A stretch of DNA of 62,461 bases, the filler included, from Hausera hauseri (Eukaryota), in NCBI GenBank assembly GCA_046269625.1. It is 10 parts of 10 records of this genome, joined end to end, with 100 filler letters (N's around TTAATTAATTAA, not from the genome) between each part and the next. Parts side by side here need not be neighbours in the genome. Positions count along the whole stretch, not along the records: positions 52,973 to 57,736 come from JBJURY010444802.1; 9 more parts are not named here. One strand, written 5' to 3'. The notes below the pieces were generated by a model, which saw nothing but the letters and a program-made list of their open reading frames with translations, did not search any database and had not been told where the DNA came from. Numbering within the stretch: position 1 is the first letter of the stretch; each line of letters starts with the position of its first letter. Positions 9,112 through 57,736 of the stretch are shown one piece after another. Both the position numbers and the translations under genes were made by a program.

Positions 9112-9760
9112 ATGAAAGGTATGAATTGTAAAAAAAAATTACATCCTTATGTGACACAATCCCATTCATTTATTTACTGTACTTATAATAGTAGTCCTAA
9201 CATTTTCTCTTCCAGGACCAAAAAATGTCTGGATTGTTGGTGACAGCTACATCAGACGGAGTGAATATCATGTAAGGGACACTGTGGGGACCAACCTGGG
9301 TCTTCATGCAGACATAAAATGGTTCGGCAGGGGAGGATTGACCTGGACATCTGTTCTCCCCATTTTACAACAGCGTATTCAGAGTAGCACAGCTCCAGAC
9401 ATACTTGTAATCCACTGTGGTGGAAATGACCTGGGTAGAACGAAAAGTCTGCAGCTTGTCAAATCAATGAAAAAAGATTTGCATTACCTAAAGAAACAGT
9501 TCCCAGAAATGAAGATAATTTGGTCTTCAATCAATCAAAGATGTCACTGGAGGTATGGCCACCCAGCAAAGATAGAAAAAGCAAGAAAGTTTGTCAATAG
9601 GGAAATGAGCCACTTCTGTAAAAATGATATTGTACATCATCCACAAATATTGTTTAACAAGCCTGAGCTGTTTTTGAAGGACAATATACATTTGAGTGAA
9701 AAGGGAAATGATGAATTTTGGAAAGCAATTGCTGAACACCTGAAAAACCATGTTTTCTGA
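9112..9760 (+). CDS. SGNH/GDSL hydrolase; probable join(9112..9118,9216..9760)
   Basis: Blocks intact: VWIVGDSY (I), WFGRGG (II), IHCGGND (III), DNIHL (V). GT..AG intron 9119-9215. AATAAA overlaps the stop codon. Confidence 0.85.
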
Positions 9761-12189: not shown

Positions 12190-15100
12190 CTAAATGCATC
12201 GCAGTGATGGCACTGGAACCACAACATGTACAGTTTCCTCCCTACTTCTTGAAAACCTAACCTTACACTTGGCATACGCACAACGACTAATGATTCTTTT
12301 TAGTGGGAGGTAGGTTGCATAGGAAAAAGGTTCAAAACCCACTTCCCAAACTGAACATGAATCACTATGACTGTAAAAATGTCTATCACCATGTTGTTTA
12401 AACCATTTCACCTCAGCCACAGTATGCTCAGCTTTAACTGTCTTACCATCTCTTTTCAAAAAGATTATGACCTTAAGCATTTTGGAAATCAATGCTGGTC
12501 GAGCAGCAGCTTTCGGATCAATAACAGGTTCGCCTGTTTTCTCATCATTTCTGAGCCACCTTGCGAAAACACATGACTTTGCATCAGCTCTGTAGTCTCC
12601 ACTTGATAGCAATTCCCCTCCTACTGTGCATCTGTCAAACCTAATGGAGTTGAAAGACACTCTGTGTACACAGTCGTTTTTGTACAAAGTCTTAAACATT
12701 GAAAGGAGAGCGTCACTTTCTTCATACGAAATATGTCTTCGGTGTAAAGGTGGAAGCAGATTCTCCAAAGTCTCATCAAATCGGAAGTCATGCGGAACAT
12801 CACTGTCTGACATAATTTTAAGTCTATTAATCTGTTCCATTGTAAGTTTGTAGCTGCATTTTGATGCTTTCTTTTTAGAGAATTGTAAATGCTCTTCAAC
12901 CTGTTTTGGTAAAGATTTCGATTTACGAAATACCTGCCAGCCTAGCAACCATTTACGCATCATAATGACTTCTGCATGTCGGTTATTAGTATGGTAGTCA
13001 CCTAAAATCCCATTACACCTTTCAAAAGAAAAGCACCAAAATGAATGAACTGGACCATAGTCTAAGATGCACGAATGTAGGTGTAAATGCAGGTGTAAGT
13101 TCATGGTACACCACTCTTTTCCATATTTGTCTTCAAATAAATCACAGAAAATTTGAAGACACCTATGCGCATCATCCAGCTGACTTGTTGTTACAATCCG
13201 GGTACAAAGTGTCCTTGCAGCAGAGACAAAAGATGTCCAGATATTATAATCTGCTTCAGGCAAAAGACCTTTCAAGGCATACAAAGAGTAAGTGCATACC
13301 CAAATCTTCCACTGGGCTGCTGTAAATCCTTCAAACGCAGACTCGATTTTTCCAGGAATTCCAGGATCAAGGTCACTCGGGACTTTTAAGGAATCCACTC
13401 GTGACTGCAAAATTAGGAAGGACTGCCTATTCAGTATACCTTTTTCTTTCCACACTTGCATTACTCTTTTGGCTGTGCCCTCCAAGATATTATGCATGGG
13501 GTCAATAACATGCATTCTAACTGGGTCAAAATAAGGCAAGTCGTGAAGAACACTATACCTGGCACCATAAATTCCTTCTAATCTTGCTTGATCTGCCTTT
13601 GATTTGGCTCTTTTTGCTTTCCTGGCATACAAAATGTGATTTTCTTTTGACCTGGGGAGCCACTGATCACACCGGAAACCTGAGTAGTCGACCTTGTTAT
13701 CAGTGGTTCTTGGAAATTGTTTTAAACATTTAGAACATCCCATTTTAGCCATGTGCCCTAGAAAACCTCCAGTCTTGCGAGATGCTGGAATATCACTTGA
13801 CAAACACAGTAGAGCAGCTCTGTATTGTTGCCTTCCTAAACCCGTAGAGTCTAACAAGTAAACCCCCTTCCACAGGTCATGAAGGTCATCAACAAGTGGT
13901 TTCATGTAGGAATTAATATGCCCTTTGGGTTCATGTGGTCCAGGAATTATTCCTGCGATTATAATATTCTCCTCCTTAAATCGCTCCTCACGAGGAAGAT
14001 TCATTACAACTAGATACATAACACCTACAGAATCTTTAACTTTATCATAGGGCTGAAACCAGTCAACATTAAGCATGAGACCCAGATTACATGCTTCAGA
14101 AAGAAATGGCTTTCCATCATAAGCTTGAAAATCTTTCCAAATCTGTCCATCAAACACATCAGCAATAACATTGTCGCACATTTCACGTTCTCTCCACTTT
14201 TCACAGGCTTGATTAAAACCTGGTCTCTGTGCTAAATCCTGCAAGCTCTTTGTTATGTTTCTATAGCAAAAGCTACGTTTGGGATATAAATAGGGTAACC
14301 CTTTTTTCCCAATGGCTGTTTTCAAAAGCACAGTCCCACATTCCTTACGATGCCGCTTTTGTGCATGTTTTTTAAAACTTACATGACTACATCTTGCTGA
14401 TTTTTTTCTTATGCTGTGTCCATCCTTTACAATTATGGTTGCCTCCTCAAGTGTATATACTGTGTCACAAACTGGGCATGCCACATAGTGAATGAAGTCA
14501 TCTTTTTGGAGTGAAAGCATTTTCCTGATATTATACATGGTTGAGGGAATTTTTTCAGCCAAATGTCTCAATGTATCAATCTTTAAAATGCTGCCAACCA
14601 CAAAAAGAAATGACTTAACCAGATTTAACAGTGCGATGTAAGCATTGTCTGAAATTGTAAACTGGGACTTCCACATTGTAAGTTGAAGGATAAAATATGT
14701 CAACCATGAGTACTGAACATCATCAACATTGCTGTTATCATTCCTCTCTTCATCTGCTTTGTCTTCATGTGTGCCTTCAAATGCAATGTCTTCTCCACTC
14801 CATTCCATGTCCTCATCTTCATTGCTGCCTCCAGTGTCTTCTTCAACTCCAACATATTCTTCATCGCTATTGTCACTTTCCTCTTCACGGCATCTGGTGT
14901 TCCTATTTTCTTCAACTCCAACATATTCTTCATCGGTATTGTCATGTTCCTCATCATGGCATCTGGTGTTCCTTGTGCTGCATTCGCTGCTGCTGCTAGC
15001 ACCTGGAATCACATTTCAATCACAGTTCAATCATCTGTCAAAACAAACCAACAATGACATCAATCTTATACAGAACTTAAAAGAACAAACATTTTCCTCA

Positions 15101-21780: not shown

Positions 21781-22610
21781 GGAAACGACGGATTCATTTG
21801 TAATGACGTCGACATTTTTGTAATTTCGTCATTTGGTCATTTTGTCAGTCCCACCCATGAACTGATTGTATGTCTTCACCACCGCTGGACAGTCAACTGG
21901 TATACGTTTGTGCTGCTTGGCATCATAACGTAACTCTGTTGTATCGGGATCTAATATGTACTTTGTTGAGAGAAAGTAGATCGGCCGTTTGTCGCACCTT
22001 ATGAGAGCTGTAGTTTTACCGTTGTACATAACTCGGTGTGATCCACGTTGCATTTTCTGCTTGGTGGAGATCTTTTGGAAACCGTTTTCTATTTGTCAAG
22101 GCCGTTCCGCACATGTATGTGTTCTGCTGTTGAAGATGTTCAGCAACGTTCACTGAAGTGTAAAAGCGGTCTGTGAAGACACAGTGATGTCGGCCCTCAA
22201 ACGTTTGTAGTAGGCGGTAAACCAAATTTCCTGTAACACCAAGTCCTGCATGTTGGTCTGTTTGTACTTTACCAGTGTAGATTTCCGCATTCACAATGTA
22301 GCCTGTTTTGCTTTCACACAAAAGAAACGCCTTGAGTCCCCATTTGATTGGCTTGTCCTTGATGTATTGTTTGATACTAATCGCATTTTTGGTGGGAATC
22401 ATTCCTTCATCAAGTGACAGCTCGCAGTCAGGCATGTAGAATTCTTGAAAGTTTACGAGGATGTGATTGAAGATTGGTCGGCTTTTGTAGATCTGATTTA
22501 TCAAGATCTGGATCCTGTTCATCAGCACAGTGCAGCATCGACTAGATGGCAAGAAAGCAATCACAAGTGATGACTTTAGTAAATCCGGATGTAGCTGTCA
22601 ACGAACTATC
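21781..22610 (-). mobile_element. piggyBac (PGBD4-like) transposase remnant
   Basis: LSLDEGMIP, KQYIKDKPIKWGLK, EIYTGK, VFTDRFYTSV and YNQFMGGTD cover the DDD triad; frameshifted. Confidence 0.92.
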
Positions 22611-30790: not shown

Positions 30791-33631
30791 CCAGGAACAC
30801 GCAATGCGAATGCAGATTATTTATCAAGAATGCCTGACATACCCAAGCCAAAAGAAGTGGTTGCGGCGGTATGGAGTATGGATGGATCCGTAGAGAAAAT
30901 AAAACAGAACCAACAAGAAGACATGGAAATAAAGGCAATTAGAAATTATATACAGAACAAAGTATTACCGTTAAATCGAGAATTAGCTAGACATTTGGCT
31001 CGATTTAGTGATGCCTACGAAGAAAAAGATGGATTTTTATACTACATCCATCAGAATGGACCAACCTTAGTAATCCCAGAAAAGAACAGAACAGTGTTAT
31101 TGACGCAATACCATGACGGACTATTAGGTGGTCATCAGTCAGCAAGAAAAACGATAGCCAAATTAAAAAGGAAATATTTTTGGCCCACGTTAATAAAGGA
31201 CGTACAAGAATGGTGCGATAGCTGCAAACTATGCGCTACGCGCAAGAATGCCGGATCGAAGTTCAAAGCTCCCCTTAAAGTATGGGATAATCCGCCAGCT
31301 CCATTCGAGTTTACAGCTATGGACATAACAGGTCCCTTACCATTAACACGAAATGGAAATAAATACATTCTAGTTTTTATAGACTATTTCACTCGATGGG
31401 TAGTAGCGTTACCAATGGCTGATATGAAAGCTGATACAATAGCTGAAAAATTCGTGGAGAATATAGTGTTCAATTATGGAGCTCCAAGAATCTTATTAAC
31501 AGATCAAGCATCTAATCTTACGGGTAACGTAATGCAGGCGATATATGATATTATGCGAATTCTAAAGTTACGCTCAACACCAGGACATCCAGAAAACAAC
31601 GGGATGGTAGAAAGATATATCGGTGATCTAAAAAGCAAATTACAAACGGTTGTTAGCTCTCGACAGGACGATTGGGATGAATACATCAACGCCTGCGTAT
31701 TTGTAAATCGAACATCAGTGCATGAGGCCACTAAGGAAACACCATTTTATTTGATGTACTTAAGAGATGCTCGACTACCTATTGATTTAGATTTTAACGT
31801 CAAGCCCACATCTCATTTAATGGAGATAGAAGAGTATAAATTATTAATGCAGGAGCGCCTTCAACTAGCTTACAAAATAGTGAAAGATAATCAAAAGGAT
31901 TATAAAGCCACGTATAAAAAGTATTATGACGAAAAAACAAAACAACCTAAGATTAAAGTCGGAGATAAGATGATGCTGCATGTGCCTCTGAGTAAAAAGG
32001 GAAAGACATCCAAATTGGATAGACCGTATAAAGGCCCATATGAAGTAGAGAAAGTGGATCTACCGAATCTCTGCCTAAAGAAGAACAATACTATATTCAA
32101 AGTTCATGTGAATAGATGCAAGCCCGCAGCCAAGGAAAGTAAGCTTAGACAAGACGAACAAGATATAGTAAGAAGTATCAAAGATAAATCGACTATAGAC
32201 CATAGATCCTATGAACCAAGAAAACATTTCTTGTGGTTAATATTAATGTTACTGCCACAAGTGTTGAGCCAATTAACTAAGCAAGAAATTGAGCAAGCCA
32301 AAATACGACATGCAATAGCTATAAATGAAGATTTAATGCTAAAAAGTTTGAGGTATCATATGACGTACACTATGAAAGGCCAAAAATGTGCAATCTGGCA
32401 TACTACAAGACAAATGACCAGTGACTATATGATAGGAATACAAATGATCCCTCGGAGTGACTATGAAAGGGATCCTAATGAACGACAGTACGACTGTATA
32501 CTTCACCCAACCGTGAACGAGACACAATGCTCATTAGAAACTTCCGGGACTCATGCGGTATACCTTACGCTTATAAAGAGAAGAGGGGATTACTATCGCA
32601 GTCTATATACTAAATTCAGTAAATATATTAAAATTCCCCATCGATCTGAAATGAACGAGACCTTATTAGACGAAATTATACTTAAACAATTAAGAATAAG
32701 ATCAAAGGGATTCAAAAGTGGACGTAGTTGCATTGAGGTCATGAGTATAATAGAACTGGAATATATTCGATGGATAACGATATCAATAAAGGCAGTAGAT
32801 AGCAAGCAAAAGTCAAAATGTGAAATTACGTACGAACAGCAGCATGTATGCTGTAACGTAATAAGAGGTAAAATATATAACGTAAATTATACGTTATCAC
32901 GAAAAGAATACGGAAAATTCAAAGGAAAAATACGAATAAAAGGGCCAACCATGTATATTAGGTACAAAAACAAGGTAGAGTACGATGAAAAGGTTGGAAA
33001 TGTCACAAAACCGTCTAGGGTTATGGAGCCACCCGTACACGCTCCGTCGAATAGTGAACGGAGAGACATGACTATATTAATTAAACCATATACATCATAT
33101 TACCGACAAAAGCGCTCAATATGGGAAAACGTTACAGTTACGACTACCCCAACAGCCCTGATAATGTCAATAAAACCCGACCTTGATTTTGCGAAAGTAA
33201 GATTTGTTTGTAAATTAAAAGACATAATAGTAGCAAAGGGATACATAACCCCTGATGATCTAGTAGTACCCTGCGCAGCACTCAGACCTAATACCCAATA
33301 CACCGTTATACTTCAATTAGTTGATGATAATAATAAAGTAACATCAACCAAAATACTAACAGCTATTACTCGAAAAGAAATAAAAACCCTAGAGTTACAT
33401 AAGAAAGGTGTTATTAAGTATGTCACCACTCAAAGGCCGACAAGAGCCGTGTATAAGTATTCCCGAATAGAATTAATAATAGCAGGTGTTTGTACCCCCA
33501 TAGTATCGATGATATTAGTTTTAATAATAATAAAAGTAATATCGTACGTACGACGACGTCGCAAACAATCATGGATCCGAATAGACTTGCGACGTATCAC
33601 GAATACCTTGGAAATCGATAATCCAAGCTGA
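30791..33631 (+). CDS. pol: Ty3/Gypsy Pol C-terminal part (RNase H tail, integrase) fused in frame to an env-position membrane protein; 5' truncated
   Basis: Frame open from the contig edge: PGTRNANADYLSR; HHCC (YHD..GGH..CKLC); D-D-E (AMDITGP, LTDQA, NGMVER); GPY motif (YKGPYEV). About 470 further aa contain HFLWLILMLLPQVLSQ, RQKR, LRPNTQYTV, a TM helix and RRRRK. Confidence 0.93.
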   Translation, partial: PGTRNANADYLSRMPDIPKPKEVVAAVWSMDGSVEKIKQNQQEDMEIKAIRNYIQNKVLPLNRELARHLARFSDAYEEKDGFLYYIHQNGPTLVIPEKNRTVLLTQYHDGLLGGHQSARKTIAKLKRKYFWPTLIKDVQEWCDSCKLCATRKNAGSKFKAPLKVWDNPPAPFEFTAMDITGPLPLTRNGNKYILVFIDYFTRWVVALPMADMKADTIAEKFVENIVFNYGAPRILLTDQASNLTGNVMQAIYDIMRILKLRSTPGHPENNGMVERYIGDLKSKLQTVVSSRQDDWDEYINACVFVNRTSVHEATKETPFYLMYLRDARLPIDLDFNVKPTSHLMEIEEYKLLMQERLQLAYKIVKDNQKDYKATYKKYYDEKTKQPKIKVGDKMMLHVPLSKKGKTSKLDRPYKGPYEVEKVDLPNLCLKKNNTIFKVHVNRCKPAAKESKLRQDEQDIVRSIKDKSTIDHRSYEPRKHFLWLILMLLPQVLSQLTKQEIEQAKIRHAIAINEDLMLKSLRYHMTYTMKGQKCAIWHTTRQMTSDYMIGIQMIPRSDYERDPNERQYDCILHPTVNETQCSLETSGTHAVYLTLIKRRGDYYRSLYTKFSKYIKIPHRSEMNETLLDEIILKQLRIRSKGFKSGRSCIEVMSIIELEYIRWITISIKAVDSKQKSKCEITYEQQHVCCNVIRGKIYNVNYTLSRKEYGKFKGKIRIKGPTMYIRYKNKVEYDEKVGNVTKPSRVMEPPVHAPSNSERRDMTILIKPYTSYYRQKRSIWENVTVTTTPTALIMSIKPDLDFAKVRFVCKLKDIIVAKGYITPDDLVVPCAALRPNTQYTVILQLVDDNNKVTSTKILTAITRKEIKTLELHKKGVIKYVTTQRPTRAVYKYSRIELIIAGVCTPIVSMILVLIIIKVISYVRRRRKQSWIRIDLRRITNTLEIDNPS

Positions 33632-42435: not shown

Positions 42436-42889
42436 TCAAACTAACGTCAGGATGCACAATCAATTCTGGTTAAATCGTAAAAGTACCAGTGAGAAATCTG
42501 TTCATTCTCTAAAGACAAGAAATCGACATGATGAAGAAAATTCCAAGAGTTACGTGAATAATTGCAACGAAAAGCCTAACAGGACTTTTACCGTATCTTC
42601 AGAACTTCGATCTTCGTTTTCTAAAGCAAATTCGTTTGATTTAGATTTCTTACCGAAGAAAGCAAACATTTCCGAAAGGATTGGATAATTGTAATCATCA
42701 TGATGGGTAAAAAGGTCTGATTTCATTGAAAATGATTTTCTCCAAATCGTTGAACATATCGTCGACAAGAATGAGACGTTCTAATGATGTCCAAGATCGT
42801 AAAACCGGCGATGTTGCTAGCCACTTGTCTGTGAAAAGTGACGAAGACGATCGAGATTGGCATTATTCATTGCACCCCATGAACAGTAA

Positions 42890-44100
42890 CAAAGCGGAAA
42901 TTACACCGAAGGATATCGCAAACAATGGCAACACATGTTATATCAATTTCATCACCCAAATATTTTGTTCTCGATGAATTCGTTCATGATAGGAAATCTT
43001 CGAAGAATTCAGACACTATGAATTTGATGTTAACGAAATTCTTTATGTTTCTCAAAAGTCTCTGGTTGTTACAACTCGACTGTAATTCGTTGTCCAATGA
43101 TTTCAGTTTGGAATTGTTAAATACCGAATGCAGTTTTCAAAGAAATGATCAGCGGGACGCCCAAGAGTGTCTGTTGTTTCTACTCAACCATTGCCACGAA
43201 CCTTTGAAAGTCGGTGTCGTTTTGGAACCGAAGAAAGTCAAGAAACCGAGAAAGAATATTCTCTATTTCGAAGCACAGAAAATCGTCAACCAGAACAAAT
43301 CCCGAATTCATTCGATTTTCGCCACACATTAACAGTTGGTTATTGTCTATTCGATTTGTCGCACTCGACAGAAGAAATTGGAACCGAATCTTTGCCTTAT
43401 TCTTCCAGTTCCGGCTAAAACAATGGAGTTGTTGTATTGTTTTGTTGAAAAGAGCGGATCACAAATATTCAGAGCGATGTGATAAACACTGTCAGCCCTG
43501 CACAGTTTGTTCGTGAAAATATCGCTCACATATTTAGAATTAACGTCAATGACACCATGATCATGGTCGTCAATGAATCAGCATTCGGGAAATGTTCTCA
43601 CAAATCTGACACGTCTATCGAATTGCTGTGCGGGAAACAGTCCACTACAAGCAACATATAGAATGGTGTAGTCGCCCTTAAGACATTATACGTAAACAAT
43701 AATTCATTTCGTCAAGAAACCGATCCAGACTGATCAGTGCGCATCAGATGAAAAATAGCAATTTTCCATTGAGTAGAATTACTTTCGATAACACCAATGA
43801 CATACGACATCGAACTGGACATTATAATAATTTGTCTTTAAATGAGGAAAAGTGCACATATACTTCATTTGACGGTATGAAAACACTGTTGTCAGTCGAC
43901 TAATGCACCTGTTAATAAAAATCAGTCAAAGACCGACGACGAATCATCCGAAAGTCAACTAAAGCTCGTCGTTATTCACGTTGAAGTACTTGTCGATGTG
44001 CTAAAACTTACAGATCGCGAATATCTCGGCATTAAAGCTTGCACACTCAGAACTCTAACGGCCATAATTCATTACAGTAAACCTACGTTTTGCTGGTCTG
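42890..44100 (+). pseudogene. Ubiquitin-specific protease (peptidase C19) pseudogene
   Basis: Cys box IANNGNTCYIN, then QRDAQECLLFLLNHCHE in another frame, and degenerate LVVIHV and LTAIIHYS downstream. Multiple frameshifts. Confidence 0.75.
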
Positions 44101-49849: not shown

Positions 49850-51180
49850 CATATTAATCACCATACGCCCAATATATTACCTTCTTAGTCCATATGGTAC
49901 TCATAATTATCCATATAATTCTCATAAAATCCTTCTATATTCCCTCAATATTCCATATAATCCATCCATATTTCCTCAATATTCCATATAATCCTTCTAT
50001 TTTCCCTCAGTATTCCTTACATATTCCTTATTATCTTCATACATTCCCTATCTAGTCCTTATAATATTTGTATATTCCCCAACTAGTATTCATTATCTCG
50101 GTATATTTCCTCTATATATTCCATATAATCCTAATATATTCCTTCATATTCCATATATATTCCATTCATATTCCTCAATATTTCTTTCAATCCTTTTATA
50201 TTCCATATAATTACTATATATTCCCTATAATCCTTCGATATTCTCTCAGTATTCCATATAATCCTTCTATATTCCCTCAGTATTCCTTATCATCTTGGTA
50301 TATTTCCTTATAGATTCCTTATTATCTTCATACATTCCCTATCTAGTCCCTGTTATCTTGGTATATTTCCTTATAGATTCCTTATTATCTTCATACATTC
50401 CCTATCTAATCCTTATAATATTTGTATATTCCTCAACTAGTACTCATTATCTCAGTATATTACCTCAATATTTCATATAATCCTCATATATTCCATCCAT
50501 TTGCCTTATAATCCTGATATATTCCTGCTCATGTACCCCGTGTTTTGTCTATATTTTACATGTAATTTTACCTACCATATCCAATATAACTTATGTAAGC
50601 CATATATTACCTGATTATCACCCATATATCACATGTTTTGTCTCTGTTCTCCATAATTATTCACCATATCCCCAATATATTACACATATTCCCTATGTTC
50701 CTTATATATTCCCTATATATTTTCTCATATAATGCCTATAATATACTTGTATTAGCTGCAGTTTACCTGTATTTTACATATATCACCCATATAACTTGTA
50801 TATCACATGCATTTATTTCCCCATAATTTACCTGTATTACCCCACATGTTACCTCAGTCACCTAGATATTACCTCCATTTCACCCATATTACTTGCATAT
50901 TATATACAAGTATTATCTGGATATTACCTGATTTTTCGTTACTTCCCAACTAATCCTTATCATCTTGTTATATTCCCTAACAAGTCCTTATTATCTTGGC
51001 ATATTCCATCTCATATTCCTCAGTATTCCTTATTATTCCTCATATATGCCCTCTTAATTCCTCATCATCTTGGTATATTCCATCTCATATATTCCCTATA
51101 CTCCAGATATATTCTCTAATCCTGAATAATACTGATATATTGATTCCATATTATCTTGGTATATTCCCTCTCATATTGTT
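49850..51180. repeat. Low-complexity G-poor degenerate repeat (ATATTCC/TAATCC-type)
   Basis: Extreme strand bias with internal near-exact duplications, e.g. 50292-50350 and 50355-50410. Confidence 0.85.
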
Positions 51181-51479
51181 GTCAACATGTTACATTGTCA
51201 GAATTTTTGTTTTAATGCATCAAAATACATGAACTTTTCACATATTAATTTAAGCAAATGTCAAGGTAAAACATACTTGTATGAATCTATGTATATACTG
51301 CATTTTTGTTTTAATGTATCAAAAATACATGAACTTTTCACATATTAAACAAAACCTTGAATCCGTGATTATATATTGCTATGATATTGCTAACATTTGT
51401 TTTAATGCGTCAATAAAATTAACAAACCCAGCCAAATTTAATCTAGGTTTTTGGGAAATCTATTGAGCTCATCAGATTT

Positions 51480-52620
51480 TTTCGAATAATGCACATTTTA
51501 TCGATTTTTTCGAATTCGAATCGATAATTATTCGATTTAGAATAATTTATTCGAATATATGACATTATATTTAGATTGTCAATGTATGCTTTTTTATCCA
51601 TGTACGCTTAAAAATTTCTTGATTTCTGTATGTTTCACCTTCAAATTCACCTTTTAAAATAAATCAATTAGTTAAAACAAAAATATTACATAATATTACA
51701 TCATTTATTTAACAGCCTTGATTAAATATACAATTATGCACTGCACGACTTTATTTCGATTTCCTTTTAGGTTTTCGCATATGAGGAATCAAATGCCGTC
51801 ATTAGATTATTGGAATAATGTATTCTTGATCGATATTTCGAGTTCGAATCGATAATTATTCGAGTTAGAATAATTTATTCGAATATCTGACATCAGATTC
51901 GGATTCTCCATATTTGCTTTCCTATACATGTACGCTTAAAGATTTCTTGATTTCAATGTGCTTCACCTTAAAAATCACCTCAATTGGTTAATCAATATAA
52001 GAATTACTTTGCATTTATTAAGAACTTTTTTACATGTTGGAATTTGCATGTTTTTTATACACTGCACCGCACTTGTGTTGATTGCCATATAGGTTTTCGA
52101 CCATGAGGAATCGAATGCCATCGTTTGATTCGTCAAATAATGCTTGCTTCATCGATTTTTCGAGTTTGAATCGATATTTTCTCGAGTTTTAAGCTCGATG
52201 TCAAATATTTAACATCATATTCCTAATCTCAATATACATGTTCCTATCTGCTGTGCTTAAAGATTTATTGACTTCAATATGCTTTAGCTTCAAATTCACA
52301 TTATTTTGTTTAATCAAGAATTACTTTGTATTTATTATGCACTTTTAACATGTTGGAAATTGTTTTGTTTTTTATACAGTGAGGTGCACTGTACCTTACT
52401 TGTTTTGATTGCCGTATAGGCTTTCGACCATGCTGAATCGATTGGCATCATCTGATTCTTCGAATAATGCTTGCTTCATCGATTTTTCGAGTTCGAATAG
52501 CTAATTATTCAAGTTCGAATATTATTTCCGATCATCTAACAAAATATTTCGATTCCACATACACGACTTTATATCCCGCCCCGCTATTACATTTATCGAT
52601 TTCCTATTCAGTGAACTTTA
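51480..52620. repeat. Tandem array of about 325-330-bp units (about 3.5 copies)
   Basis: AATAATG..TCGAT.TTTCGA.TT.GAAT recurs at about 51485, 51814, 52136 and 52463, with collinear downstream sequence. Confidence 0.85.
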
Positions 52621-52699
52621 AATTCACATTTTGCTTAATTCGAAATATTGATTATATATAGTAGGGGAAAAAAGAGAGTTCTAGCTCAGGGGGAAGGAG

Positions 52700-52872
52700 T
52701 CCGCCCACGCATCACGTGATCCGCCCACGCGTCACGTGATTGCTCACGTGATCCGCCTACGCGTCACGTGCGGCACGTGATTGGTCACGCGATGCGTGCG
52801 GAAAGTCACCAGACATTTGTTACTTATAATAGTTATTCTCACGTGACATTGTCGATTCTCACGTGACATTGT
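52700..52872. promoter_or_regulatory. Dense E-box (CACGTG x7) and GC-box cluster, probably the terminal repeat region of a mobile element
   Basis: Seven CACGTG and two CCGCCC within 170 bp of an otherwise very AT-rich contig. Confidence 0.45.
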
Positions 52873-52972: not shown

Positions 52973-53333
52973 ACCAAGTATGACAATTTTTCCACTGCTA
53001 AACACATTGACATAACTTGGACGAAACAGTGTTAATCTCAGTGCGGGAAACGGTTCAGGCTCATAAATACATTCAGTAGCTATTGCTCATTTGTACGGAT
53101 TGACTGGCTGATGGAAATCTAACGGAGTCGTTAACGTTTTTGATTTAATTTGGTCCATGACAATTCCGAATGGTAGCTTACTGTTTTCAGTTGTGATTGG
53201 TTTGCGACAACCTATAATACGACACTTGCCAGATTGAAATATGATGCATGTAATATCCGGTGGACATTTGTGAACATACTGCCTCGGCTTCCATTGATTA
53301 AATGGCAATGCGTTAGTTGATATTGGATAACAT
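52973..53333 (-). pseudogene. TATA-binding protein (TBP)-like gene, disrupted, 3' truncated
   Basis: Repeat 1 ITCIIFQSGKCRIIGC. Reading through TGA at 53087-89 gives repeat 2 CIYEPEPFPALRLTLFRPSYVNVFSSGKIVILG (TBP: YEPELFPGL..LIFVSGKVVLTG). Probable start MLSNIN at 53333. Confidence 0.82.
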
Positions 53334-53394
53334 TATGAAAACAGTACTCATGCCGTAGCAATATTTTTGTGTGGCGTGCATATAAACAAAAAAA

Positions 53395-54074
53395 TTTGAC
53401 GAAAGGTGTCTTATTATTAACAAGAAGCTACACAATAATGCTATTTTCGAGGTTGTAGGCTCCGGTGCAAGTGGCAAAACACACTTTGTAAACTATTGCA
53501 AAACTACCGTGACGTATTCCATTATCCGCGGTTTAATCACATTTACTGCCATTATGGTTCTAGTGGAGATAATGGAGAGTCTGGTTTGACACGTCAGGAA
53601 TTTTGTAAATTAAAATCGATGAGAGTAATAAATGGGCTTGATGAGAAATGGTCAGGACGATTATATAATTGTGATGTTATGGTCATTGAAGATTTATTCA
53701 AGGAAACCGCGAAACAAACCGACTTCAACAACCTGTTTACAAAGATTGCACGACATCGTGCAGTGACTGTTATTTTCATTACGCAAAACATGTTCCATCA
53801 TGCCGGACAGCATCGAACACAAAATCTAAACATACACTATTTGGTGTTGTTCAAAAATCCCTGTGATCAAACTGTCATTGATTATGTTGCACGACAAGCG
53901 TTTCATTACAACCGAGCATACTTGATAGATGAATATCATGATGCTAATACCAAGACAAACGGATACCTGTTCATTGACTTTACACAACAGTGTCCAGATG
54001 ACATGCTTGTACAAACAGACATTTTCAATCCGAAAGGCGTGTATGACTATAAACAAATTCAAAAATTGACATGA
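53395..54074 (+). pseudogene. Polinton A32/FtsK-like DNA packaging ATPase (one frameshift)
   Basis: Walker A VVGSGASGKTHFV (about 53452-53490, different frame), Walker B VMVIEDL, FTKIARHRAVTVIFITQNMF, HYLVLFKNPCD and GYLFIDF. Confidence 0.92.
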
Positions 54075-54285
54075 TAGCAATAGTGAAAAATGAGTAATTA
54101 TCGCAAAACAAATTTAAACGTAAACCTACTAAATAGTTGTTCAGAAAGAAACGTGCATCAACTACGGAAAAACGTAACGCTACAGGTAAGCGATTAATCA
54201 ATTCAGTGCTTCGAATAACATCAGCAGTGAGTCGCAAATTACCCGCAAAGTGGTAACAATTATAAACAAATAGGTCGACGCATCA

Positions 54286-54619
54286 ATGCGCACTGACGAA
54301 ACATACGTTTCAAACGTAGTCAACCATACTTTATTGCTTTGCTTAAAGCACCGTCGAGTCATAAACGAAACGTGCTACGATCATTCGGGCAATTTGTAGT
54401 GGACGATTTAATGGAAATTTTGTACAATATTGTTGTGTGTCACGTTGGCCTTGATATTAGAAAGCGGAGTTTACTATAGTATCGAAAACGACTCATTAAT
54501 CTTGCCAACGCTCGTAGTGAGAAGTCATGTACCAGCACGACGGCGGATTTCGTGGTACAATTCTACCGGTTGTCATGTCATTACTGGGTGGTATCATCGG
54601 TGGCACCCGTTTAGTATAA
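54286..54619 (+). pseudogene. Conserved small Polinton protein with C-terminal xGG-F cleavage-like site and hydrophobic tail
   Basis: FIALLKAP..KRNVL..LMEILYNIV..RKRLINLA..QHDGGFRGTILPVVMSLLGGIIG; contains a stop and frameshifts. Confidence 0.65.
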
Positions 54620-54742
54620 TATAAACAATGAATGTAAGTATATTATGTTTTAGTGGTATGAGTACATGGTTTTCATCATTTTGTCCCACTTTCCTTTCGA
54701 ATTGTTTCAGTGCAAACAAAAGCCATATCAGTAACACCGACG

Positions 54743-55135
54743 ATGGACGTAGGGTTCGATCCGCGTTATCCCGTCGGGTATACTGGCGTCGACAAAATGG
54801 CAGAGTGTAAAACAGAGTCGACGACAAACCCAACATTAGGTGGGAAAACAGTTAGCATACAGTCTGAACAAATAGATAAGAAAACTGTTTCCAACTTTTG
54901 CATACCATGCTGCAGCCGTAAACAACGCATGACAAATGGTTCTGATAGAAATTATCCCGTACGCTAGTATCAACAATGGTTATTGGTACGTGCTGATGTG
55001 TATTGATGTATTTAGTCGTTTTGCACGTGCAATGGATGTCAAATAAAAATCCTGTAAAGAAATTGCAGACGCTGTTCACACATTAATTAAGCCGCCGAAA
55101 TATGCACAAACGGATTTTGTAAAGAATTCTACAAT
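54743..55135 (+). pseudogene. Polinton retroviral-like integrase, truncated
   Basis: FDPRYPVGYTGVDKM; QLAYSLNK*IRKLFP; IPYASINNGYWYVLMCIDVFSRFA; PKYAQTD. Ends before the catalytic E. Confidence 0.85.
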
Positions 55136-55183
55136 TATATGCGATAATATTTCCCAAATCATATTTTTTATTTAAACAATCGT

Positions 55184-55920
55184 TTGTTTCTAAAATACCG
55201 ATATCCAATTGAATTGCAATTTAAATCAATAGCCGATGCTCAGGCATGGGGTTTTCAATCTGTCAATATACGCTTTAAAGGTTTGCAACTAGGTGGACAT
55301 GTAGTAGCTAGTGAAAGAAAATCAAACTTTTCCAAACCCATGAAAACCGATATTACGGTGAACTGGCAAATGACAATATCAACCTTTTACTCGCATTCTG
55401 TTGGATACGGTTTACTGTTGGAATCGGAAACAGAATTGTGCTTATCCATGAGAGACGTGGTTAAATTGGCTCTAAAGACATTTGAATTAAACGCCGTTGG
55501 TCGTATTTCGTTTACACTGCAAGATAATGTTACATATTGTGCCTTTGATGAATTATTGGCACGTAATCGGGGCTTTACGAAACAAGAATTCGATCAAACC
55601 GGTGGCGGTCGATCTATTGTGGCTAAATACAAACCACGACTCTATGGAGCATTTGAACAAATCAACATTGTAACGGATGTAACCGAACCTGTATTTGTTG
55701 GTAAAGACCGTAAACAACTATTGGTTTATATTACACTGGATTCTGATACGTACAAAACACCCGACGAAACGGTTCACATTGATATCATCCGGCCCATGAA
55801 ATATCGTTATCTCATAATGTTGTGCACAGCATTGCAGTGCACATGCTAGATGAATTTTGGAAACTCGTTAAATTGCTGTTCGGGTCAACAATACATTTGA
55901 CGCTACATTTTCGACATTGA
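55184..55920 (+). pseudogene. Minor capsid protein (penton, PX-like) paralog 1, N-terminus missing
   Basis: INIVTDVTEPVFVGKDRKQLL, then after a frameshift SIAVHMLDEFWKLVKLLFGSTIHLTLHFRH*. Confidence 0.75.
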
Positions 55921-55959
55921 CAATAAACAAACTGCATCATCATCACTACAATCAGCAGT

Positions 55960-57022
55960 GCGAATACGAGTCTTTATATGGTGTTACTGAGCAATAGTTG
56001 TCCTACGACTCGTCCGAATAATTCAGCCAATCAATACATTGCAAATTGAGACAATCCGATAGATTTATCCAGACAATGGGAAGTTGCACTAACGGAATTT
56101 AACTTTCCTTATGCAGCGTTGATATTGAAAGGCAATATGAAAATACATTACAGCACAACTCACCGGGTCACAGCAAATGAACCTTGTCGACTACTTTTTG
56201 AAAATAATAAACTGTGTGCCAGAACCTTTTATGCTTTTACGAACAACTTTAAAAAGAATACAAAAGAAGACAAAATCCCTGTTATGCTAAAAAATGAAAA
56301 AGTATAGTTTGAGTAGAAAAGTGAATTTAGTGCCCGCTTCAATTCCATTAAAATGGTGACAAAAATTGGGTTCAAAACTACAGAAATCAAAGGTAAAAGC
56401 ATCGATGTTGATGATGCCCTCGCACAAAATACGTTTCTATGAACATATGTGGACATTATTTTTAGTGGACAAAATATATCAACGGTGCATGGTACATCTA
56501 TCGAAATTGACGATAATGTCTATTGTGAATCTGGAGTGGATCTTGTTCGACATTTTTCCGCTAAAATGTACCAATATTTAAAGGTTTATCGTTAGATACA
56601 AATGAATACATCATATTCGAACTGTACAAGGATGTGGTCGGAATTTCGTTATATAAGGCTTTGGCAATGGTACTGAGCTTTGCAAAACAGCAGTTTGAAC
56701 CGAATAAAATACATGTTGCGACAATTAAACCCAAACAGAAAAACGGACTATATCAAATGTATATTTATACGATCTCACCGAACCGATTTTGGTCAGTGGA
56801 GTACGTGTACTGCTACTCCATGCAATCTGTCCAGGAAGTAACCGGTATACTGCTGGTGATAAAAGTACTGCCAAGCTTGATAATTTAATGTACATACCCG
56901 TGGCATCTACAACTACAAACAATGTTGAAATGAATATCAGATGTGAGGCGGGCTAATTTATTGAATTTCCGTTCGGTACAAAAACCAGTTTAACGCTTCA
57001 TTTTCAACGAAAAAGTGATTAA
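55960..57022 (+). pseudogene. Minor capsid protein (penton, PX-like) paralog 2
   Basis: LYMVLLSNS..PNNSANQY..PIDLSRQWEVALTEFNFP; MYIY.DLTEPILVSGVRVLLL; MYIPV..VEMNIRCEAG*FIEFPFGTKTSLTLHF. Confidence 0.85.
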
Positions 57023-57374
57023 TTTTGCACACGTTTCCATTTACAGCAAACCTCAGCAGAGTGGTGAACTGCCGTATTTTGTCGACAAACAGTATGGTTC
57101 TGGGTAGTTGCGTACATTGGCTTGTTTAGCATTTCCGGTGTTGAAACGAATTGGTGTCGTGGCAGCAAAAACAGCACAGGATGTGCTACATGAAAACAAG
57201 TCAATTCTGCCATCGTTAAAGGAACACGCCTTGGCAGAAATAAAAAGCGCTGCACCAGGAATCGTTGAAACAGTCAGAATACAATTCACTGGCAGTTGCT
57301 TGAGAAAACGACGTAGTGTATCATCGAGCTTTTCAATTTTAAACAAACGCCGACGTCGTACGATTTTCAACTGA
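57015..57374 (+). pseudogene. Small basic Polinton core-like protein upstream of the major capsid gene
   Basis: QQSGELPYFVDKQYGSG*LRTLACLAFPVLKRIG..AQDVL..QFTGS..KRRRRTIF resembles the QxGxG..FRxxxP.LK..DV..QxGxG..DIF protein typically found at this position. Confidence 0.7.
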
Positions 57375-57383
57375 TTGATTGAA

Positions 57384-57736
57384 ATGGCATCTGCAAAATC
57401 TGAATTGTGTATGTTTAACAAAGCCGCACCACAAGTCGTTATTGAAAATGCAATATTTGAGGAAATCTATCCCATTGATTTTGTTTCGAAGGACGATAAC
57501 ATTGACATTCAATTCAACATTATGGCATCGGACAATAAATATCTGGATTTGAACGATACTCTACTTTATGTAAAAGTCATTGTTAAAAGGGACGCGGCAA
57601 CGGTTCTCGCTGCAACCGACACTGTCACACGGGCCAATTACTTTTTCCTCACACTGTTGCAGGAGGCTTCACTGACTCTGAACAGTGTCAAAATCGAAGG
57701 CAACACCAGTCTGTACAGTATCAAGGCACTCATTGA
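57384..57736 (+). CDS. Polinton major capsid protein (PY, double jelly-roll), N-terminal part
   Basis: KSELCMFNKAAPQVVIE..EIYPI..IQFNI..KYLDLNDTLLYVKV..NYFFLTL matches the KSELDLF..TQxxI..Y(I/L)DL N-terminus. Cut by the contig end. Confidence 0.88.

Follow-up and report, generated by a model that had tools for sequence, protein, structure and literature searches.

A broken gene in the genome of Hausera hauseri is a dead fragment of a conserved, many-copy Polinton gene that encodes a small homolog of the TATA-binding protein (TBP), here called mini-TBP. Intact relatives of this gene are element-borne and under purifying selection, and in the elements that carry them a TATAAAC-type box marks the packaging and virion genes and never the TBP gene itself. 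From sequence comparison and a predicted structure we propose, with moderate confidence, that mini-TBP is made early and switches on the packaging and capsid genes as late genes, for which it would bind the TATAAAC-type box and recruit host TFIIB and RNA polymerase II (Pol II). The interest lies in the mini-TBP family and not in the dead copy through which it was found: the family bears on how Polintons control their capsid genes and on whether they have a true viral cycle.

The TBP-like gene and its neighbors

The window is the whole stretch of DNA analyzed here (62,461 nucleotides), in which ten genomic pieces are joined by nine 100-base N spacers, with a CpG ratio of the pieces ranging from 0.43 to 1.19. 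The segment 52973-57736 (part of JBJURY010444802.1) was handled as a separate contig of 4,764 bases, and both of its ends fall inside genes (Table 1). At its left end the first-pass annotation had described an intronless gene with both TBP saddle repeats, and this description was confirmed. Both quoted motifs lie in a single frame of the minus strand (53332-52976) that contains one in-frame stop, and no intron was found in the alignment of the copy to residues 16-126 of intact relatives. When the read-through translation, with X at the stop, was searched with the Pfam TBP profile (PF00352), as had been advised, the score was 41 bits (E 1.8e-10; curated cut-off 22.9), and 35 of the 36 matches at E<=10 in a PDB sequence search were TBP chains or fusions with TBP. 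The gene has its start codon at 53333, and the opening codons, which include an early stop, are in a different frame; the damage thus consists of two stops and, close to the start codon, one frameshift. With the intact relative P0003 as yardstick, about 23 last codons are missing, since the segment stops at the N-run beside 52973. Seven of the nine invariant columns of the mini-TBP family are retained, among other residues the stirrup glutamates E97 and E99 (P0003 numbers) being both kept.

Table 1. Features of the segment 52973-57736 (coordinates of the window)
Feature	Positions	Strand	Evidence or remark
Mini-TBP gene, broken, with start codon, 3' end lost at segment end	52973-53333	minus	Pfam TBP; about 70-75% identity to intact P0002-P0007
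TATAAACAA box	53381-53389	plus	35 nt before ATPase homology start; inverted, about 50 nt upstream of TBP start
A32/FtsK-type packaging ATPase gene, one frame change	53416-54074	plus	tblastn with L024 ATPase, 54-60% identity; Pfam Pox_A32 on L024 and close relatives
TATAAACAA box ahead of short basic ORF (about 54090-54260)	54048-54056	plus	
Small core-type gene, broken, with protein-X-like motif at end; TATAAACAA box at 54261	54261-54610	plus	family member in L001 is 37% identical
Truncated and broken rve integrase gene (homology 54758-55115), with TATAAACAA box at 54620	54620-55115	plus	49% identity, four stops
First penton-like (minor capsid) gene, broken	55148-55917	plus	similar to family F6 of L030 and L046; no Pfam match
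Second penton-like gene, broken	55969-57013	plus	position and motifs
Small virion-module gene before the major capsid protein gene, one stop	57033-57371	plus	44% identity to L046; one-mismatch box at 57338
Putative major capsid protein gene, 5' part, cut by segment end	57384-57736	plus	46% identity to 412-aa ORF of L046

The remaining genes of the segment are all on the plus strand. The ATPase homology begins at 53416, 82 bp from the TBP start, and the head-to-head arrangement at less than 100 bp that had been noted before is thus borne out in the window. This tight layout is uncommon in relatives: among 17 loci with an ATPase gene, the TBP gene is upstream in tandem in 14, head-to-head in 2 (gaps of 373 and 1700 bp) and far downstream in 1. 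In the small core-type family, Pfam Adeno_PX gave a weak match to the L021 member (E 0.005), and Pfam rve matches the integrase relatives in L008 and L024. The penton-like and putative major capsid protein (MCP) ORFs gave no Pfam or PDB sequence match, and they are conserved, with fitting size and order; we take the former to be penton-like from their position, size and motifs, and the latter to be presumably MCP from its position and size. Two penton-like genes in tandem were seen at 55148-57013 and in L030 (5616-7684), while most relatives have one. The penton-like genes carry stops and frame changes, and every other gene of the segment has stops or frame changes except the MCP fragment, which has no stop in its 120 codons; the TBP gene has therefore decayed together with its neighbors (the ATPase, integrase and penton-like genes included), as had been supposed.

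Judged by its gene content, the whole segment is one Polinton/adintovirus-type module, sharing with Polintons and the proposed Adintoviridae the ATPase, rve integrase, penton-like, MCP-like and protein-X-like genes. Neither PolB nor protease was found in the 4.8-kb segment or in the rest of the window. Among the TBP-bearing relatives, pPolB (DNA_pol_B_2 on L053) and the adenovirus-type protease (Peptidase_C5 on L024 and L025) are present.

Other copies and linkage to Polinton genes

The TBP gene plainly belongs to a many-copy element family. In the public run X1, possibly the sample from which the segment derives, 14,245 contigs (a depth that is not a copy number) lie on the segment at an identity of at least 85%, covering all 30 bins, the TBP part included; 872 of them are at 99% or more, 2837 at 95-99%, 6512 at 90-95% and 4024 below 90%. 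Over 52973-53720 there are 1,685 contigs at an identity of at least 80%, and three contigs bridge the TBP side and the ATPase side.

A search with the broken copy yielded two intact relatives (74% and 71% identity), whose clusters comprise six sequences of 149-172 aa. Of 3552 candidates, 715 proteins matched the profile of these six at E<=0.001; the top 120 of the 715 are mostly 144-165 aa long, and 118 of them are new, with 45-62% identity. The median length of mini-TBP is 149 aa (124 sequences). An alignment of 119 mini-TBP sequences was used to find 59 metagenome loci, 24 of which contain a core gene (ATPase, MCP, penton, integrase, protease or PolB). Among the other loci, 23 share an accessory family with the core-gene loci, 5 more do so in a second round, and 7 (1.0-1.6 kb) are unplaceable; among the loci of at least 3 kb, a core gene is present in 17 of 23. 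The 59 loci, many of which come from a few related data sets, reduce to 37 TBP clusters at 80% identity, 18 of them with a core gene. The first-pass annotation had regarded the TBP gene as part of the element and had suggested a search for intact copies and their linkage in other genomes; intact relatives of about 149 aa do occur beside Polinton core genes, and the three bridging contigs join the TBP gene to the ATPase side in X1. Its refuting possibility, that the gene might be absent from other copies of the Polinton, was examined as well, and the gene is present in many copies and relatives.

A search of genome contigs by ATPase first gave two loci, too few to serve as a TBP-less control: L060, in which a TBP gene is located just upstream, and L061, which is cut at the ATPase and shows an ordinary TATA upstream and no TBP within 3 kb. 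Viral contigs searched with TBP alignments A2 and A3, with the window ATPase, with the window MCP and with alignments A4 and A5 gave no match. As an indirect sign of linkage, 15 of the 85 ATPase matches (contigs of at least 1.5 kb) equal in exact size a contig with a TBP match (1.2 expected after jitter), the two closest pairs among them. The median dN/dS is 0.22 and the maximum 0.43 (67 non-independent pairs).

Several genes were noted around the TBP gene. The commonest TBP neighbors (L035:2934-3512; families F1, F7, F9 and F10) are without names. F7 and F1, with GT..AG in between, have the appearance of two exons of a single gene. One common neighbor is similar to proteins of giant viruses, and 10-18% of its cluster members have DUF5871/DUF2738; these domains are presumably those of single-strand DNA-binding proteins. 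Cargo genes of six loci (L009, L030, L032, L046, L050 and L053) include dual-specificity phosphatase, ubiquitin-conjugating enzyme, LRR, RING finger, KilA-N and phospholipase-A2-like genes and a weak Tet/JBP match. In L021, L027, L030, L039 and L046 a short frame that begins with Met-Gly and contains a Cys-Cys pair lies behind a box and overlaps the start of the integrase gene, out of frame with it; it could be a lipid-modified peptide or a frameshift.

Predicted structure and conserved residues

Mini-TBP is predicted to be a two-repeat TBP saddle whose first repeat is without both helices. The model of intact P0003 has a pLDDT of 96.4 and a pTM of 0.85 (a model from a 6-sequence alignment, pLDDT 33, was discarded). 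It contains no helix of at least 4 residues before residue 84, so that repeat 1 consists of strands only and repeat 2 is complete. In Foldseek, 39 of the 44 matches at E<=0.001 were listed and all 39 are TBP chains; in VIA-align, P0003 against human TBP 164-337 gave Z 13.9 and an rmsd of 2.5 over 146 residues, the first non-TBP row having Z 6.4. In structural alignment the family shows 19-26% identity to solved TBPs (20-22% to human TBP). The shortened first repeat of the earlier description is real, but it is the normal form throughout the mini-TBP family and not a product of decay.

Helices H1 and H2 of the N-lobe, with the basic regulator-binding patch, are gaps in the alignment and absent in the model. 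Among the 119 sequences (P0003 numbers), three of the four intercalating phenylalanines are kept (F40 in 119, F101 in 118, F117 in 119) and the first phenylalanine of repeat 1 is replaced, by Q in 102. Conservation within the family is highest on the DNA-binding face, where N6, R46, M48, S71, R105 and N115 are fixed as polar or altered residues; residues were mapped by sequence alignment to the plant-type TBP P0183, and those taken to contact DNA are in part assumed. In the stirrup, E97 is found in 114 of 119 sequences (D in the others) and E99 in all 119, and no TFIIB was detected among the 74 of 252 locus ORFs scanned with Pfam; from these two results together we infer use of the host TFIIB. 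According to the available text of Ravarani et al. (PMC7221094), the TFIIB contact of TBP consists of two C-lobe glutamates, and the surface for TFIIA, TAF1, Brf and Mot1 is largely on N-lobe helix H2. A point against the proposed role of mini-TBP is the loss of one of the four intercalating phenylalanines, as in TRF2, which cannot bind TATA (PMC10005294, in the part available).

A TATAAAC-type box upstream of packaging and virion genes

In the segment, TATAAACAA occurs four times, always on the plus strand and always ahead of a gene; three occurrences in all were counted in the nine remaining pieces of the window. Over the whole window TATAAAC occurs 26 times, where 17.5 would be expected, and 4 of 100 shuffles reached that number; this enrichment is only mild, and the signal of the box is positional. 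For counting in the TBP-bearing loci, the box was defined as (T/C)ATAAAC(A/G) within 90 nt of the first ATG, after removal of near-identical upstream regions. Of the packaging and virion genes, 35 of 48 have the box, as do 10 of 49 accessory genes but 0 of 40 TBP genes; among background windows it is found in 148 of 4244. In these counts gene starts were taken as the first ATG, which may be wrong, and regions from one element are not independent. By gene, the counts are 13/14 for the ATPase, 8/8 for MCP, 4/8 for penton, 3/4 for the protease, 6/9 for the small core gene and 1/5 for the small gene before MCP; a box also precedes LRR genes (4/4), the integrase (3/7) and an unnamed gene (8/9). An unnamed conserved family, F3 (L024:5870-6352, L030:9591-10052; about 160 aa, box 8/9), lies behind the protease in many loci and gave no Pfam match; by eye it is like a DEDD nuclease with Cys/His motifs. 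In the relatives, 11 of 13 ATPase boxes are 32-37 nt before the ATG (for the box of the window ATPase, see Table 1).

An unbiased ranking of 6-mers in the regions upstream of packaging and virion genes put ATAAAC first (37/48), and the top 7-mer was ATAAACA (32/48). Where the box lies inside the gene preceding MCP, the Ile-Asn codon pair that spells the box is used in 6 of 6 cases, as against 53 of 324 overall. An ordinary TATA was found before 14 of 40 TBP genes and 13 of 49 accessory genes, and virion genes had one in 3 of 48 cases. Upstream of the TBP genes the top 6-mer is inverted AAACAA (TTGTTT; 18/40, often 54-67 nt before the ATG), which is often seen where there is no ordinary TATA (L005-L017, L024, L037, L045, L052; window 53381) and is possibly an autoregulatory site or the site of a host factor.

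Repeat 1 of TBP reads the 3' half of the TATA box. A Hoogsteen pair in a TATAAAC box has reportedly been studied, and the PDB title of 1qn3, a row in the structure comparison, names a C(-25) variant. In the available text of one study (PMC10005294), cellular promoters seldom have C at TATA position 7 (2/389; 0.01 in 171 plant promoters), and TATAAACG, with two changes, kept 27% activity in plant cells; host TBP is still able to make weak use of such a box. Polintons in general may carry this box.

Proposed mechanism and alternative explanations

In the mechanism that we propose, host TBP would transcribe the mini-TBP and accessory genes early, from ordinary TATA promoters. Mini-TBP would then bind, through its changed DNA-binding face, the variant box that cellular TBP rarely uses; its kept acidic stirrup would recruit host TFIIB; and without helix H2 it would escape control by TFIIA, TAF1, Brf and Mot1/BTAF1. 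Redirection of the host polymerase by an element-encoded factor, which the first-pass annotation had suggested, fits this scheme since a promoter-like box marks the packaging and virion genes, and we likewise infer it for mini-TBP.

It is unlikely, although it deserves weight, that the box is instead read by host factors, either of the Forkhead type or TBP or TRF binding weakly, and that mini-TBP has another job, e.g., as a TFIIB decoy or a promoter blocker. The top 7-mer ATAAACA fits the Forkhead consensus, and the inverted AAACAA upstream of 18 of the 40 TBP genes would agree with a host factor; the box is, however, strand-specific and tightly spaced before the ATPase ATG (11/13 within 32-37 nt), as in a core promoter. 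A decoy would be consistent with a TFIIB stirrup that is kept while one phenylalanine and both first-repeat helices are missing, but a pure TFIIB decoy would not need a DNA-binding face, and in this protein that face is conserved more than any other part.

We regard it as improbable that mini-TBP is a control-proof factor without box specificity, boosting all AT-rich promoters of the element with no early/late split. The presence of the box before some non-structural genes points in this direction, and in vitro EBV BcRF1 binds TATT just as it binds TATA (PMC4893493, available text); against such unspecific action, no box was found at the 40 TBP genes, the canonical TATA is depleted before virion genes (3/48), and the DNA-face residues differ from those of cellular TBP in a fixed way. 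The pairing that we propose, of an element-encoded TBP with its own box, would allow capsid-gene control in Polintons to be tested directly, and the box could flag expressed virion genes in RNA data.

Phylogenetic placement

In a tree of 61 rows, for which a profile search of representatives with family members and cellular TBPs mixed (1130 matches at E<=0.001, 142 at 1e-10) was a source of rows, the window copy joins P0002 and P0003 (support 100/99) within a short-form clade of 34 rows (100/97). Twelve ordinary two-repeat TBPs are on one side (100/99), and longer element-type forms lie between. The possibility raised in the first-pass annotation, that the copy groups with host TBP, was examined in this tree, where the copy sits in the mini-TBP clade apart from the cellular TBPs. 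The tree is rooted at its midpoint, has long branches and contains no animal TBP or TRF2, and therefore it cannot give the TBP donor. We reject as exceedingly improbable the reading that a TBP or TRF pseudogene of the host entered a single element by chance: the window copy is broken and the tree is without animal TBP or TRF2, which would leave room for it, but the copy has 70-75% identity to intact relatives of 149-172 aa (as against 19-26% between the family and solved TBPs), nests in the mini-TBP clade of 34 rows (100/97), and the 14,245 X1 contigs on the segment take in its TBP part, with three contigs bridging the TBP and ATPase sides.

The longer element-type TBPs (about 160-190 aa; L053-L055, L059, L060; e.g., P0221, P0215, P0226) span the first-repeat helices, and their branching between the short forms and ordinary TBPs suggests stepwise shrinkage. 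An NCBI tardigrade protein named TBP-like (P0243) branches between ordinary TBPs and the element-type forms and might be an element-borne gene annotated as host.

Comparison with known systems

Mini-TBP shares with cellular and archaeal TBP (PF00352) the saddle fold, three of the four phenylalanines, the TFIIB glutamate pair and a complete second repeat. It differs in its length (about 149 aa as against a core of about 180), in the missing repeat-1 helices, in the replaced first phenylalanine and several changed DNA-face residues, and in having only 19-26% identity.

The herpesvirus vTBPs (EBV BcRF1, KSHV ORF24, HCMV UL87) are likewise viral proteins of TBP fold with a variant TATA box; use of host Pol II is proposed here for mini-TBP. 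In the available text of PMC4893493 and PMC7498053, the vTBP of beta- and gamma-herpesviruses pairs with the variant TATA (TATT) on late genes and works with host Pol II. The vTBP is, however, large; it has an extra N-terminal domain for binding the Pol II CTD, depends on five partners and reads TATT, whereas mini-TBP has no extra domain (the fold match, residues 1-149, is the whole protein), keeps the TFIIB stirrup, and goes with a box that varies at position 7. No herpes-type partner protein gave a Pfam match among 74 of the 252 locus ORFs, in loci that are incomplete and in which many ORFs are unnamed. By analogy, mini-TBP may work like vTBP without being a member of a vPIC, as it has no Pol II-binding domain; that a variant TATA box marks structural genes, as in the vPIC system, is a correlation (35/48 against 0/40).

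Giant-virus (Nucleocytoviricota) TBPs have also lost the N-lobe regulatory surface (PMC7221094, available text) and gave weaker structural matches to mini-TBP in BFVD. Giant viruses mostly encode their own TFIIB, and their stirrup is about 40% conserved (same source, same text), in contrast to the near-invariant stirrup of mini-TBP. Neither TFIIB nor RNA polymerase of the elements' own was found among the 74 scanned ORFs, which include, for the loci of 12.6, 12.8 and 18.3 kb (no locus being complete), their ORFs or the family representatives of these.

The first-pass annotation had held TBP homologs to be untypical of Polintons. This has to be corrected, as a "TBP" label already stands in figure legends of Starrett et al. 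2021 (PMC8502044; bioRxiv 10.1101/697771, in their available parts) on MELD viruses and elements from non-animal datasets, i.e., on Polinton-like elements. These TBPs may be of the mini-TBP family, the comparison being by legend label. The adintovirus accessory-gene text (section 3.2), the readable labels of the animal maps and the portion of the supplement that was examined have no mention of TBP, and in the available text of that paper no TBP family, structure or promoter box is described. Sporadic TBPs are found in mirusvirus-like algal elements (PMC10675990, available text), and the available part of PMC12220804 holds no relevant passage. Our literature search, with subscription journals outside its scope, found no paper on the mini-TBP family.

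Taken together, and tentatively, a large clade of animal-type Polintons (a label based on their gene module and on the work of Starrett et al.) may run an early-to-late programme by means of a single 149-aa factor, which would be the smallest known two-lobed TBP, retuned to TATAAAC, blind to host TBP regulators, plugged into host TFIIB, shrunk stepwise from longer element-borne TBPs and independent of the herpesviruses. A natural TBP without the helix for TFIIA, TAF1, Brf and Mot1 would show the minimum needed for starting Pol II transcription, and mini-TBP with its box is a possible orthogonal TBP-promoter pair.

Other features of the window

In the other pieces, Pfam matches correspond to a GDSL lipase-like gene (9155-9760), Transposase_21 (12190-15015), a DDE_Tnp_1_7 fragment (22016-22597), a retrotransposon integrase (30791-33631) and a UCH fragment (42883-43332), all unlinked to TBP. 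The end of the piece that precedes the segment (52641-52872) has short tandem repeats, 7 CACGTG words and GC-rich boxes and could be a mobile-element end or a promoter; it was not counted as a Polinton end, having no useful match in the 59 loci. The 31-bp tandem array at 49909-51196 is diverged and strongly strand-skewed, and behind it, at 51478-52629, come three to four units of about 325 bp.
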